Source: a virus
Lineage: Duplodnaviria > Heunggongvirae > Uroviricota > Caudoviricetes
DNA: 13,908 nt
Direction: 5' to 3' (one strand)
Virus record (IMG/VR): IMGVR_UViG_3300031999_000011
Made by a program: the position numbers and the translations under genes. Each line of letters begins with the position of its first letter. The first letter of the stretch is position 1. Of this stretch, positions 5,939 to 12,998 are shown piece after piece. The notes beneath the pieces were generated by a model. It searched no databases and had not been told where the DNA came from. It saw nothing but the letters and a program-made list of their open reading frames with translations.

Positions 5939-6136
5939 GGTGAATTGCTGGTAGCAATTGTTTGATACTATGAAAGCAACGTTAGATGAACTGAAGTTCC
6001 TATAAAAACTGCGCGGATCAATATCGGGCGCTCCCGACGGGTTTGGACTATATCTAATGATGTGATAACTATAGCATGAGGATCCCTGGTGGTCTTCAGA
6101 ATGCGGTTTCGTAGTTGGAAAGCAAACAATTTCACC
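5939..6136 (+). ncRNA. about 200-nt multi-stem ncRNA candidate
   Basis: Pairings GGTGAA/TTCACC, AATTGTTTG/CAAACAATT, ACTATG/CGTAGT, AAACTGCG/TGCGGTTT plus three local hairpins; GC-richer than flanks; no ORF. Confidence 0.6.
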
Positions 6137-6252
6137 ATAAATTTATGAATATAGTTGATCTATTTATTGATTTACTATATTATATTGAATAAGTGATGTT
6201 TGTTGTCGAAATGGATTTTGACATGATAGGGATTGTCAAATTAAATGGATAT

Positions 6253-6329
6253 GAAACGTGTTGCGTAGAGAATAAGTTACTTAAACTTGAAATTAAAATA
6301 AACTCATTTTCAATTTTATCTCATGTTTC
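6253..6329 (+). ncRNA. UUGCGUA/UACUU scaffold element, copy 1
   Basis: P1 GAAACGTG/CATGTTTC; TTGCGTA; P2 GAGAATAAG/CTCATTTTC; TTACTT; cargo contains CT-TGA-AA; 10-nt linker AATTTTATCT. Confidence 0.8.
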
Positions 6330-6380
6330 TTTTTATAAATTCCGATCTATTGTTTGTAAACGATAGATTATACATGTTTT

Positions 6381-6475
6381 GAAAACCTTGTTGCGTAGAT
6401 ATCGAGCTACTTATAACTGCTAATTGGATGACCTTCGGGTCAGTATTCTCGTGTCGTTCTTATCTCAAGGTTTTC
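6381..6475 (+). ncRNA. UUGCGUA/UACUU scaffold element, copy 2
   Basis: P1 GAAAACCTTG/CAAGGTTTTC; P2 GATATCGAG/CTCGTGTC; CTACTT; cargo CT-GCT-AA plus UUCG hairpin; linker GTTCTTATCT. Confidence 0.85.
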
Positions 6476-6493
6476 ATTTTAATTTTTAAGATT

Positions 6494-6934
6494 ATGTTAA
6501 TTAAACAAATAAAAGCTGATATTACATTAGCAAGAAAAGAACACGACAAGTTTAAAGTAGCCCTATTAACTACCTTACTTTCAGATATTCAAATGATTGG
6601 TAAGAACGCGTTACGTGAATCTACTGATTCTGAAGCAACAGGAATTGTTAAAAGATTCATTAAAGGAATTGACGATACTATTGCGTTGTTGAATATTTCA
6701 ACCGAACTTGAAGTAATATCTAATAAATTAAGTCAAGAAAAAGAAATTTTGAGTAAATATTTACCAACTCAATTAGATAATGAAGAGTTATATATTGTAA
6801 TAAATAATGCTATTAATAGTGGCGTTTGTAATACATTGCCATTAATAATGAAATTTTTAAAAGATATGTATCCCGGTCAGTATGACGGTGCAATGGCAAG
6901 TAAAATTGCAAAAGAATTGTTGTTAGTAGCATGA
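6494..6934 (+). CDS. yqeY: GatB/YqeY domain protein
   Basis: Start 6494 (the upstream ATG lies inside RNA copy 2); patterns IKADITLARKEHDK, EKEILSKYLPTQLDNEEL and GQYDGAMASKIAK are typical of YqeY. Confidence 0.88.
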   Translation: MLIKQIKADITLARKEHDKFKVALLTTLLSDIQMIGKNALRESTDSEATGIVKRFIKGIDDTIALLNISTELEVISNKLSQEKEILSKYLPTQLDNEELYIVINNAINSGVCNTLPLIMKFLKDMYPGQYDGAMASKIAKELLLVA

Positions 6935-7053
6935 TTAGTTACACTGAACCAGAAAAAGTTGCAGCATTAAAAGCAAAATACTCATTGGTGTGGGCAGAGT
7001 TTTATGTTAAAGGTGTTACCGCTGCAAAGGTGTTAAAAGATTTGTTTATATGA
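6931..7053 (+). CDS. small hypothetical protein (40 aa)
   Basis: ATGA overlaps with both neighbours; MISYTEPEKVAALKAKYSLVW... Confidence 0.65.
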   Translation: MISYTEPEKVAALKAKYSLVWAEFYVKGVTAAKVLKDLFI

Positions 7054-7268
7054 GTGATATTACAGCGGATTTGTTAGCCACACCAAGATTATTAGTTACT
7101 CGAAATGATGGGTCAAGTAAACCTACTTATTTTGAGATAATGTTAAAAGAAGTTGCACCAAGTGGTTTGTACATGAGGTATCAAACAGTAGGTGCAAGCA
7201 ACAGCCTATGGACTGAAATCGATACATATAAATTGATTGAAGTGTTATGGGAGAATCAGTTGCAATAA
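7050..7268 (+). CDS. hypothetical protein
   Basis: 72-aa ORF, translationally coupled to the upstream ORF. Confidence 0.75.
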   Translation: MSDITADLLATPRLLVTRNDGSSKPTYFEIMLKEVAPSGLYMRYQTVGASNSLWTEIDTYKLIEVLWENQLQ

Positions 7269-7288
7269 ATAAGCAAAGAAATTATAAT
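7260..7288 (+). promoter_or_regulatory. sigma70-type promoter directly before RNA copy 3
   Basis: TTGCAA-N17-TATAAT; copy 3 starts at 7302. Confidence 0.8.
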
Positions 7289-7301
7289 ATATTATAATTT
7301 A

Positions 7302-7460
7302 TTGATAGTTACGTTGCGTAGAGAACAGATACTTCATACCGAAAGCAGATTGTCAGGGGTTCGATTCCCTTCTACCTTCCCTTACAAGAAGGTAGTAGCT
7401 CAGTTGGTAGAGCATCCGCCATAAAAAAGACTGTTTTCGTTTTTAACTCGTAGCTATCAA
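7302..7460 (+). ncRNA. UUGCGUA/UACUU scaffold element, copy 3, carrying a circularly permuted tRNA body
   Basis: P1 TTGATAGTTACG/CGTAGCTATCAA; P2 GAGAACAG/CTGTTTTC; ATACTT; tRNA 3' half (7345-7379) precedes 5' half (7389-7419); linker GTTTTTAACT. Confidence 0.85.
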
Positions 7461-7485
7461 CAAATTATAAAATAAAAAATAAAAG

Positions 7486-7514
7486 TTGCAAAGTTTTAAA
7501 AAAGCATTTATAAT
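7486..7514 (+). promoter_or_regulatory. sigma70-type promoter upstream of RNA copies 4-6
   Basis: TTGCAA-N17-TATAAT with an A-tract upstream; no ORF follows for about 1 kb. Confidence 0.85.
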
Positions 7515-7634
7515 ATGTTTAAGTTTAAAGAATTCAAGACTACTACTCCTTGAATCGGTTAGTTATATGATGTTGGGTTATATAACTAACCACCTCTTGA
7601 TACACTATTTTACATAGTAGGTAAGGGTTGATAT

Positions 7635-7733
7635 ATTAAATTGTTAACATTTCTGTTGCGTTTGTGTCTGTTACTTCTATTGGCTGAAACAACACAGATA
7701 CAGTTTTTAACTCAGAAGTGTTAACAATTTAAT
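7635..7733 (+). ncRNA. scaffold element, copy 4 (core variant UUGCGUU)
   Basis: 21-bp P1; P2 TGTGTCTG/CAGATACA; TTACTT; cargo CT-GAA-AC; linker GTTTTTAACT. Confidence 0.85.
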
Positions 7734-7757
7734 TTATTATAAATAAAAAGAATAAAT

Positions 7758-7865
7758 TAAGTTATATTGTTGATATCTCTGTTGCGTAGAGTGCCCGTTA
7801 CTTCAATGCTATGAAAAATATACGGTAGCTCGATTTTTCCTCAGAGATATCAATAATATAACTTA
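7758..7865 (+). ncRNA. scaffold element, copy 5
   Basis: 24-bp P1; P2 GAGTGCCCG/CGGTAGCTC; TTACTT; cargo CT-ATG-AA; linker GATTTTTCCT. Confidence 0.85.
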
Positions 7866-7978
7866 TATTAATAATACATATGTTGCGTAGAGATCCGTTA
7901 CTTCAAAACATCTGACTTAAAATCTGACACTAATAGTCGGTTTTCATTTTTTTCTCATATGTATTATTAATATAAGTT
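7860..7978 (+). ncRNA. scaffold element, copy 6
   Basis: 23-bp P1; P2 GAGATCCG/CGGTTTTC; TTACTT; cargo TCTGA-CT-TAA-AA-TCTGA; linker ATTTTTTTCT. Confidence 0.85.
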
Positions 7979-7989
7979 TTGAAAGATTT

Positions 7990-8284
7990 TAGTCATCCCC
8001 TTGGCTGATCCGACCTAGTATATGTTTTATGCATTACGTTTGCTAGGTCACCCTATTTAACGAACATAGATACTCTTTATCGGGTATTATGTAACCGGAG
8101 AAACACTATTAGTTTCTCTCGATCTGCTGTATGATAAATCTCCCTTTAGCATACGGCAGATCAATTTAACACTTACTCCATATCTGTATCCGCTTATGGC
8201 GTTGTGTAACGGAAAGGCTATAACAGCTTTCCAGATCTGCTGTATAGTCATGTTTTATTCATTTTTGGATTATACAGCAGGTCA
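7990..8284 (+). repeat. three tandem double-hairpin units (about 110-nt period)
   Basis: Main stems GACCTAGTA/TGCTAGGTC (8012-8049), GATCTGCTGTATG/CATACGGCAGATC (8121-8162), GATCTGCTGTATA/TATACAGCAGGTC (8234-8283), each preceded by a short hairpin. Confidence 0.7.
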
Positions 8285-8321
8285 CTTTTATGATATAATC
8301 CTTAGTCAAAGTGATATTATT

Positions 8322-8383
8322 AAGCCCTAATTTAAAGTTATATATTATAACTACCACGTTGTGGAGTAATTAGGGTTTTTTTT
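8322..8383 (+). terminator. branched hairpin plus T-tract, probable intrinsic terminator of the ncRNA block
   Basis: AAGCCCTAATT/AATTAGGGTTT enclosing two small hairpins; the 3' strand runs into a T8 tract. Confidence 0.6.
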
Positions 8384-8474
8384 CATAATGGTATAATTAT
8401 GTTGTTGAATAATGTTTAACAACATAATTACGTTTGTAAAAATGCATATATACATAAAGGTATAAAAGTTTATT

Positions 8475-12719: not shown

Positions 12720-12998
12720 ATGAAAAAAGTAATAAAATTATCGATAATCGCAATAGTTGCCAGTTTAGTTGTAGGTTGTGCAACTAGTTCAGATATTGAA
12801 AATTTGCAAGTACAAATTGATGGATTGAAGGTTTCTGTAGCTCAAGCATCATCTGATGCACAAAGTGCACAAAGTGCTGCAGTAGATGCATCTGCAAAAG
12901 CATCAGCAGCGGAAGTTGCTGCTAACCAAGCAGCTCAATTATCTCAAGATGCTAATAGCAAATTGGATAATATGTTTCAAAAATCGATGGCAAAATAA
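12720..12998 (+). CDS. Lpp/OprI-family alanine-zipper outer-membrane lipoprotein
   Basis: Lipobox VVG-C, Ala-rich coiled coil, C-terminus ANSKLDNMFQKSMAK with terminal Lys. Confidence 0.85.
   Translation: MKKVIKLSIIAIVASLVVGCATSSDIENLQVQIDGLKVSVAQASSDAQSAQSAAVDASAKASAAEVAANQAAQLSQDANSKLDNMFQKSMAK

Follow-up and report, generated by a model that had tools for sequence, protein, structure and literature searches.

A probable Y-RNA-type small RNA carrying a back-to-front tRNA mimic in the tRNA island of an environmental phage

Introduction

Why would a phage encode a tRNA body whose 3′ half precedes its 5′ half, and mount it on a repeated scaffold where the anticodon loop should be? The question is posed by positions 7345–7419 of a 13,908-nucleotide (nt) stretch of DNA from a Caudoviricetes virus (IMG/VR record IMGVR_UViG_3300031999_000011), which we analysed at its full length and refer to as the window. 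A preliminary description, written from the sequence alone, had read this element as a circularly permuted tRNA inside the third copy of the scaffold (copy 3). It noted that permuted tRNA genes mature through a circular intermediate, and allowed that the element might be a mimic rather than a decoding tRNA. Permuted tRNA genes do occur in an alga and an archaeon, Cyanidioschyzon merolae and Thermofilum pendens.

A second precedent is YrlA, a Y RNA bound by Ro60 (Rsr) in many bacteria and 22 phages, whose domain its authors call a tRNA mimic (PMC4201824). YrlA joins a Ro60-binding stem to T, closed-acceptor and D domains (PMC4201824; 10.1101/312249), and the class has been described in print as resembling circularly permuted tRNAs or pre-tRNAs (10.1101/312249). 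In vivo, RNase P cleaves the YrlA of Mycobacterium smegmatis, which has a 7-base-pair (bp) stem, and CCA is then added to it (PMC4201824). Among jumbo phages, TROVE proteins occur together with a tRNA-like partner (PMC7824862), and the Ro60 of Thermus phage phiLo binds its Yrl RNAs via a CGAA in an internal bulge flanked by the stem of the 5′ and 3′ ends (PMC12135203).

We conclude, with a probability of roughly 0.78, that about 7296–7466 encodes a Y-RNA-type small RNA, with YrlA as the closest type, in which a handle docks Ro60/Rsr and bears the tRNA mimic on top. This reading builds on the sequence and fold of the element, on a handle whose stems co-vary, and on the finding that at other loci this handle occurs beside TROVE genes and on their strand.

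Results

A tRNA body in reversed order

We re-read copy 3 base by base, and the earlier reading of 7345–7419 was matched exactly. Its parts are as follows.

7335–7344, + strand: single-stranded joiner CAUACCGAAA (sequence, folding)
7345–7349, + strand: GCAGA, 3′ strand of the anticodon-like stem (sequence reading)
7350–7354, + strand: UUGUC, variable region, C7354 in the role of C48 (sequence; ARAGORN cloverleaf of re-joined halves)
7355–7371, + strand: T arm AGGGG-UUCGAUU-CCCUU (sequence; Rfam scans; ARAGORN on re-joined halves)
7372–7395, + strand: closed acceptor hairpin, CUACCUU, 10-nt loop CCCUUACAAG, AAGGUAG (7/7 pairs)
7372–7378, + strand: acceptor 3′ strand CUACCUU (sequence)
7379–7388, + strand: C at 7379, CCUUACAA at 7380–7387, G at 7388 (sequence)
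7389–7395, + strand: acceptor 5′ strand AAGGUAG (sequence)
7396–7397, + strand: UA, as U8 and A9 (sequence, Rfam, ARAGORN)
7398–7413, + strand: D arm GCUC-AGUUGGUA-GAGC (sequence, Rfam, ARAGORN)
7414–7419, + strand: A26 at 7414, then UCCGC at 7415–7419, 5′ strand of the anticodon-like stem (sequence, Rfam, ARAGORN)
7420–7430, + strand: single-stranded joiner CAUAAAAAAGA (sequence, folding)

The body thus runs from T arm through a closed 7-bp acceptor hairpin to D arm. All seven acceptor pairs form, or eight if G7388:C7379 is counted, which bears out the perfect acceptor stem noted before, and the hairpin loop starts with C-C-C, that is, the discriminator plus CC. The anticodon-like stem has four of five pairs, with a central C.A mismatch. 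Residues for the tertiary contacts of tRNA, judged from nucleotide identities rather than from a three-dimensional structure, are also in place: U7396 (U8), A7402 (A14), G7403 and C7354 (a possible G15:C48 Levitt pair), GG7406–7407 (G18 and G19), UUC7360–7362 (U54, U55 and C56) and A7364 (A58).

Neither ARAGORN nor the Rfam tRNA model matched copy 3 in its native order. Once the halves were re-joined, ARAGORN called a canonical 76-nt tRNA with each of five trial 7-nt loops. The body is therefore circularly permuted, as first described, and a handle common to all scaffold copies is found where the anticodon loop would be. The native sequence contains no anticodon loop, so copy 3 would be unable to decode.

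The 187-nt unit of copy 3 folds at −53.3 kcal/mol (z = −6.05), a value equalled by none of 200 shuffles, and the proposed structure equals the minimum of an unconstrained folding in stability (−48.8 versus −47.9 kcal/mol).

YrlA is the closest described relative

When Rfam was scanned by E-value, the one meaningful match was to YrlA (RF02553), whose full model (1–114) aligned to 7322–7440 with 37.5 bits and an E-value of 4.7e-6. The 69-nt core, in a scan of 7341–7423 alone, scored 35.0 bits (E 9e-7). This match certifies the topology of T arm, closed acceptor hairpin and D arm, and not the scaffold.

Like the Rsr/Ro60-bound YrlA RNAs of Salmonella, M. smegmatis and mycobacteriophages, copy 3 pairs its ends as a stem with a short conserved purine-rich motif, continues with a variable region, T arm, closed acceptor-like hairpin and D arm, and retains tRNA-type conserved nucleotides while having no anticodon loop. 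The domain content that defines YrlA, these three elements inside a stem of the 5′ and 3′ ends, is thus found in copy 3. Occurrence in phages is a further likeness, as is the 7-bp acceptor stem shared with M. smegmatis YrlA, and the AUACUU of copy 3 aligns with AUGCuu of the Rfam YrlA consensus. The two differ in the handle: the YrlA seed of Rfam has a GNCGAAN0-1G helix, whereas copy 3 has a first stem (P1), an NNNCGUA bulge, a second stem (P2) and NUACUU. Also unlike YrlA is the presence of six handle RNAs in one phage. We regard copy 3 as a YrlA-like variant, which probably works like a Y RNA. It is not filed in RF02553 because no Ro60 gene was found within ~30 kb on either side, the motif is CGUA, and handle RNAs score below the YrlA cut-off.

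A co-varying handle in six window copies

The handle of copy 3 consists of these parts.

7288–7313, + strand: 5′ strand of P1, the outer stem made by the two ends of the RNA, core 7303–7313 (inverted repeat, folding, co-variation over 13 instances)
7314–7320, + strand: 5′ bulge motif UUGCGUA with CGUA core (conserved in the window copies; CGUU in copy 4)
7321–7328, + strand: 5′ strand of P2, GAGAACAG (pairs 8/8 with 7431–7438; co-varies across instances)
7329–7334, + strand: conserved AUACUU (NUACUU) after P2 (UACUU invariant in window copies and TROVE-adjacent handles)
7431–7438, + strand: 3′ strand of P2 (P2′), CUGUUUUC (co-variation)
7439–7448, + strand: 10-nt U-rich linker GUUUUUAACU, the 3′ side of the bulge (length conserved)
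7449–7474, + strand: 3′ strand of P1 (P1′) (inverted repeat, folding)

The 26 nt of the P1 5′ strand are 88% complementary to 7449–7474. The same layout, P1, UUGCGU(A/U), an 8–9-bp P2, NUACUU, cargo, P2′, a 10-nt linker ending CU, and P1′, is present in all six window copies. The other five are:

6253–6329, + strand: copy 1, 20-nt non-tRNA cargo (compensatory P1/P2 changes in strain variant L156)
6383–6473, + strand: copy 2, 35-nt cargo with a UUCG hairpin (compensatory changes in L156)
7631–7737, + strand: copy 4, motif UUGCGUU, 18-nt cargo (inverted repeat, pairing analysis)
7753–7870, + strand: copy 5, 19-nt cargo (inverted repeat, pairing analysis)
7860–7978, + strand: copy 6, 34-nt cargo, P1 overlapping that of copy 5 by 11 nt (inverted repeat, pairing analysis)

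The exact handle pattern occurs four times in the window against an expectation of 0, and the CGUA layout with co-varying stems fits five of the six copies, copy 4 reading CGUU. Pairing was measured in a hand-anchored alignment of 13 handles, the six of the window plus seven more, which together represent five viral lineages. A MAFFT alignment of seven handle copies was put aside in favour of the hand-anchored one; it was unfit for pair counting because it split P2′. In the hand-anchored alignment, 195 of 208 P1/P2 cells (93.8%) were paired, compared with a mean of 122 (59%) and a maximum of 142 in 2000 shuffles. The outer stems of copies 5 and 6 (7753–7978) share the 11 nt at 7860–7870, and their extended P1 helices are therefore mutually exclusive.

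The layout of the handle resembles published Ro60 sites. Two motifs are on record for Y RNAs, GNCGAAN0-1G (PMC4201824) and a CGAA in an internal bulge (PMC12135203). The window has UUGCGUAG inside an internal bulge, with a CGUA core that reads U where the published motif has A, and we consider this core the putative counterpart of CGAA. Yrl1 and Yrl2 of phiLo are likewise phage-encoded, with several Yrl genes per phage, and share the stem-bulge-stem form with a four-letter bulge motif, which in phiLo is needed for Ro60 binding (PMC12135203). Since a stem, a four-letter bulge motif and a second stem make up the layout shown to bind Ro60 in phiLo, we infer that the handle is a Ro60 site. The phiLo Yrls differ in lying directly upstream of the Ro60 gene, in carrying CGAA and in having no tRNA-like domain described, whereas the window has CGUA and one full tRNA mimic.

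The handle accompanies Ro60 genes at other loci

An exact-pattern scan of IMG/VR gave 49 matches. One, on the 359-kilobase (kb) contig G002 (locus L037), has the whole handle structure; the other 48 were recurrent coincidences in coding sequence without handle structure and were rejected. The G002 handle lies about 390 nt upstream of a TROVE+vWA (Ro60-like) gene, on the same strand. Used as bait, the TROVE+vWA protein of G002 led to 11 more viral TROVE loci, 12 in all. These were searched with a descriptor comprising NNNCGUA, P2, NUACUU, a complementary P2′, a 9–10-nt linker and P1. The handle was present in 6 of the 12 loci (G002, L064, L066, L067, L068 and L070), always on the TROVE strand. 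The same descriptor had no match in 48 unrelated loci, and 0.2 matches were expected per shuffled set.

A scan of metagenomes with a Ro60 alignment returned 80 TROVE loci, close relatives of the bait, and none of the contigs of the phage studied here. With a slightly wider descriptor (CG[UA]A ... UAC[UC]U), 72 of these 80 loci had handles. There were 173 in total, all on the strand of the TROVE gene; the opposite strand had none. All 173 carry NNNCGUA, the cargo of 153 contains a T loop, and 74 distinct scaffolds are represented. Handles of the six viral and 72 metagenomic loci are the same as that of the window part for part, and differ in having a Ro60 gene next door. They differ too in detail: most TROVE-adjacent handles combine UGUCGUA or UGCCGUA with a 9-nt linker, whereas the window and G002 combine xxGCGUA with a 10-nt one. 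The linker is exactly 10 nt and ends CU in the six window copies and L037; it is also 10 nt in two handles of another G002 stretch (L057), one of which ends CA, and is 9 or 10 nt, mostly 9, in other TROVE loci.

The Ro60-like gene of G002 (L037, 1031–3821) is split by a 317-amino-acid (aa) DUF7487 open reading frame (ORF), probably a homing-endonuclease insertion. It has an in-frame TAA right after the MIDAS motif DQSGSM and is followed by an IF3 gene.

tRNA-shaped cargo in both permutations

Most long handle cargos, and about half of all distinct ones, combine a T arm with a 7-bp hairpin, to which some add a D arm. Among 102 distinct cargos, the T arm is followed directly by a hairpin in 50, and this hairpin has 7 bp in 43 of the 50. 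A search of other phages for the same permutation had been proposed for the element, and the permutation is indeed found elsewhere. A handle RNA of G002 (L057, 8580) has a T arm, the closed acceptor hairpin GCCCUGC-GUAA-GCAGGGU and a D arm, and one of L066 (5591) likewise has T arm, hairpin and D arm.

The opposite permutation also occurs. At L066 6272–6407 and L067 5592–5718 there are tRNAs in normal order (45–47 bits with Rfam tRNA) in which an inside-out CGUA handle replaces the anticodon loop. Here the handle runs P2′, linker, short connector, NNNCGUA, P2, AUACUU; the connector is a small hairpin in L066 and only 7 nt in L067, and the L066 tRNA ends CCUCUCC-A-CCA. Both circular permutations of a tRNA-plus-handle design thus exist in phages. 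To judge by these sequences, the functional unit appears to be a tRNA L shape with a handle at its anticodon end, wherever the gene is cut.

At three further loci the TROVE-adjacent cargo scores as a whole normal-order tRNA, with 31–45 bits (L077 5765–5835, L078 6063–6130, L079 5095–5165). G002 also has a permuted tRNA-like element (L057 12803–12950, element 12849–12915) that has a long outer stem and no CGUA handle and encodes G-CCA within its acceptor loop. Its core scores 32.4 bits with YrlA, and it belongs to an array of tRNAs, of which Rfam matched more than 25 in the stretch examined.

Recurrence in assemblies and conservation between strains

The permuted body was found in at least four independent sediment-metagenome assemblies, which disposes of the concern, voiced at the outset, that it might be an assembly artefact. 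Three further Joint Genome Institute assemblies (L052, L053 and L054) have the same copy 3 sequence; the sole difference is in L053, where T replaces C at 7369 and a G:C pair of the T stem becomes G:U. The 6200–8000 stretch, which contains copy 3, is present wholly or partly in contigs of 12 sediment runs, six of which hold at least half of its sampled words. No RNA dataset is listed among the sequencing runs that hold this stretch.

A strain variant of the phage, L156, has about 90% identity in the flanks and 99.3% over the 144 nt covered, which comprise the promoter and the first 106 nt of the RNA. Like L053, it has G:U for G:C at one T-arm pair, and both helices, P1 and P2, of its handle copies 1 and 2 carry double compensatory substitutions. 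Searches of 6100–8450 with blastn against INPHARED phages, in near and distant modes, found no match.

Discussion

Evidence that weighs against a Ro60-bound Y RNA

Several results count against our interpretation. What is unusual at this locus is that six handle RNAs stand together with no Ro60 gene in the ~74 kb around them. By Pfam gene lists no TROVE gene lies between about −31 kb and +29 kb past the window ends, so the neighbouring TROVE gene that is typical of both the CGUA-handle family and YrlA is missing here within that distance. Published YrlA genes are usually less than 4 kb from Ro60, whereas copy 3 has no Ro60 gene in ~30 kb. Nine Ro60 queries run by tblastn against the DNA of this phage that was analysed gave nothing at E≤1. 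The only large unannotated ORF, of 469 aa, was considered as Ro60 and rejected, with an hhalign probability of 0.7% against a Ro60 alignment.

The match to YrlA is also partial. The gathering cut-off of 69 bits is not reached by the 37.5 bits of copy 3, and Rfam is silent on the handle, because the tRNA-like core accounts for 35 of these bits. Nor was the cut-off reached by any handle RNA in 20 TROVE loci. The bulge motif reads CGUA, not the published CGAA, and in phiLo Yrl2 an A-to-U change at this position lowers affinity about fourfold (PMC12135203). Finally, the TROVE association was measured on loci picked for encoding TROVE; the only unbiased search was the IMG/VR pattern scan, which yielded one structural homologue.

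Alternative explanations

The only serious rival, which we nevertheless consider unlikely, is that the handle RNAs act without Ro60. In that case they would serve the tRNA-repair and translation island in which they lie as cofactors or decoys, or would have another protein partner, and the mimic would attract or titrate tRNA-directed enzymes or toxins of the host. The lack of a TROVE gene in the ~74 kb supports this, as does a neighbourhood rich in tRNA-handling genes (nine tRNAs, a YqeY-like gene, PTH2, a CCA-adding-type nucleotidyltransferase, SIR2 and an RNA ligase). In addition, YrlA is reported to lie occasionally beside a gene for a Band-7 protein instead of Rsr (10.1101/312249, citing Burroughs and Aravind 2016). 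On the other hand, the same handle lies on the TROVE-gene strand in all other handle loci inspected, and it fits the published architecture of a Ro60 site, a bulge within a stem. A mimic without an anticodon loop, moreover, cannot decoy anticodon nucleases.

It is highly improbable that copy 3 is a true permuted tRNA gene, whose transcript would form a circle through the scaffold and be cut open in the acceptor loop to release a tRNA that decodes. The appeal of this reading lies in a 3′ half that precedes the 5′ half, in the perfect acceptor stem and canonical body, and in the formal likeness of YrlA to such pre-tRNAs (10.1101/312249). The genes of C. merolae and T. pendens do have the same order of 3′ half, linker and 5′ half, with an acceptor that is initially closed by a loop; however, their precursors carry the halves of the anticodon loop at the ends and a splice junction that restores it, whereas copy 3 has the handle there and no anticodon. 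Joining the ends offers no U33-NNN-R37 candidate in 7420–7474 or 7288–7344, there is no bulge-helix-bulge junction, the ends forming the P1/P2 handle instead, and the sequence between the halves is the conserved handle common to five copies with non-tRNA cargo. A splicing endonuclease of the kind required for such maturation is not known from bacteria or their phages. Since copy 3 offers no material for reconstructing an anticodon loop, we regard this reading as excluded for practical purposes.

The same evidence, no anticodon loop, no bulge-helix-bulge and five sister scaffolds with non-tRNA cargo, leaves the maturation through a circular intermediate that the preliminary description had entertained without support, and its reservation that the element may be only a mimic fits better. 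Its permuted body and the position of its scaffold stand as well. What it had not recognised was the YrlA class: as the YrlA domain is already described as a tRNA mimic, the preliminary description had independently come upon an architecture already in print.

Two further readings can be dismissed almost entirely, one of a tRNA gene that once stood twice in tandem and has decayed, the other of a two-piece (permuted) transfer-messenger RNA (tmRNA): the T arm of one tRNA and the D arm of the next can indeed mimic a YrlA match (PMC4201824), and there are weak local matches to tmRNA models (11–13 bits), but the acceptor strands, with just 10 nt between them, complement each other and so form one hairpin rather than parts of two genes, the domain is not a copy of any window tRNA, it is 99.3% conserved against ~90% in the flanks, homologues with different sequences and the same helices occur in other phages, and tmRNA has a tag frame and pseudoknots, neither of which was found in copy 3, where ARAGORN (-m) reports no tmRNA. 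The hairpin and the conservation thereby settle the case of tandem remnants in relatives, which had been named from the start as fatal to a permuted tRNA. A recent copy of a window tRNA was also tried as the origin of copy 3 and rejected; only the generic D arm matches, to tRNA-Ala.

A model for the YrlA-like RNA

Our preferred interpretation, a Ro60-docking Y RNA with a tRNA mimic, would work as follows. The ends of the RNA would pair as P1. An asymmetric bulge with UUGCGUA opposite the 10-nt U-rich strand, the 8-bp P2 and AUACUU would then complete the handle, the likely docking site for the Ro60/Rsr (TROVE-vWA) ring protein. Atop the handle would sit the back-to-front tRNA-shaped domain, made of the anticodon-like stem, variable region, T arm, loop-closed acceptor stem and D arm. 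Salmonella YrlA is recognised by TruB and DusA, whose marks on it are pseudouridine 55 and dihydrouridine, and the effector in Deinococcus and in phiLo is PNPase. The L shape of copy 3 may likewise be recognised by tRNA-handling enzymes or tether an effector, on the model of Rsr-YrlA and the phiLo Ro60-Yrl-PNPase complex. The 7-bp acceptor hairpin might be opened by RNase P, trimmed and completed with CCA by the phage nucleotidyltransferase; its length and the C-CC at the start of its loop would suit RNase P and a CCA-adding enzyme. The five sister copies, which lack the tRNA mimic, would correspond to YrlB-like handle RNAs, and the Ro60 partner could come from the host or from a gene in another part of this large phage genome.

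If a Ro60 gene does lie elsewhere in the genome, the locus would be an ordinary phage Ro60/Y-RNA module. A more speculative idea, which we think improbable, is an orphan battery of six Ro60-type handle RNAs in a phage with no Ro60 of its own. The RNAs would capture the Rsr/PNPase of the host or use another partner, and RNase P together with the phage CCA-adding enzyme would turn copy 3 into a two-piece mimic. The acceptor end of such a mimic, carried by a handle that docks a protein, would be free and might be charged.

Y RNAs that bear a tRNA-shaped domain are already known. What this locus contributes is a large phage from the environment, with the mimic placed beside five sister RNAs in a tRNA and RNA-repair island. 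The handle itself is a reliable, strand-specific marker of Ro60 genes that the Rfam YrlA model does not detect. It makes such RNAs searchable and allows a test of whether phages borrow or redirect the RNA-surveillance proteins of their hosts.

Genomic neighbourhood and further observations

The window is a phage tRNA island with nine tRNA genes (Rfam), a YqeY-like gene, a PTH2 peptidyl-tRNA hydrolase and a homing endonuclease, and it holds repeated blocks of early-type promoters. As bait in IMG/VR the YqeY-like protein returned no relative, and the chosen start returned no identical record. A 389-aa nucleotidyltransferase of the PolyA_pol family (CCA-adding type) is encoded ~9 kb downstream, and SIR2 is also downstream.

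A promoter may precede copy 3:

7260–7288, + strand: sigma-70-like promoter TTGCAA-17-TATAAT (10/12 consensus matches)

Its block recurs at 7484–7527 and is duplicated in L156. Promoter-like sites in this AT-rich region are not above their chance count, so the assignment is only suggestive. Immediately before copy 3, in the part that corresponds to window 7268–7290, L156 (19818–20090) carries an insertion with a second copy of the promoter block and a further ORF of 90 aa.

Further upstream in the same phage, ~6–11 kb before the window start, L156 1522–6780 holds a type I-F-like CRISPR-Cas system with Cas_Csy2 and Cas_Csy3 genes (Pfam) and ORFs on their flanks. The array that follows has at least 21 copies of the ~28-nt repeat TTATCACCGAGTAGGTGATTTAGAAA, many of them spaced 60 nt. 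At ~18–20 kb upstream, L157 1795–3432 encodes a member of the Acb2/Tad1-hairpin family and the RNA ligase (211 aa, PF09414). The Acb2/Tad1-hairpin family acts as a sponge for cyclic-nucleotide defence signals.

Just beyond copy 6, at window positions 7980–8300, are two units of ~110 nt that match no Rfam family, each of which closes with a GATCTGCTGTAT...ATACAGCAGATC hairpin.

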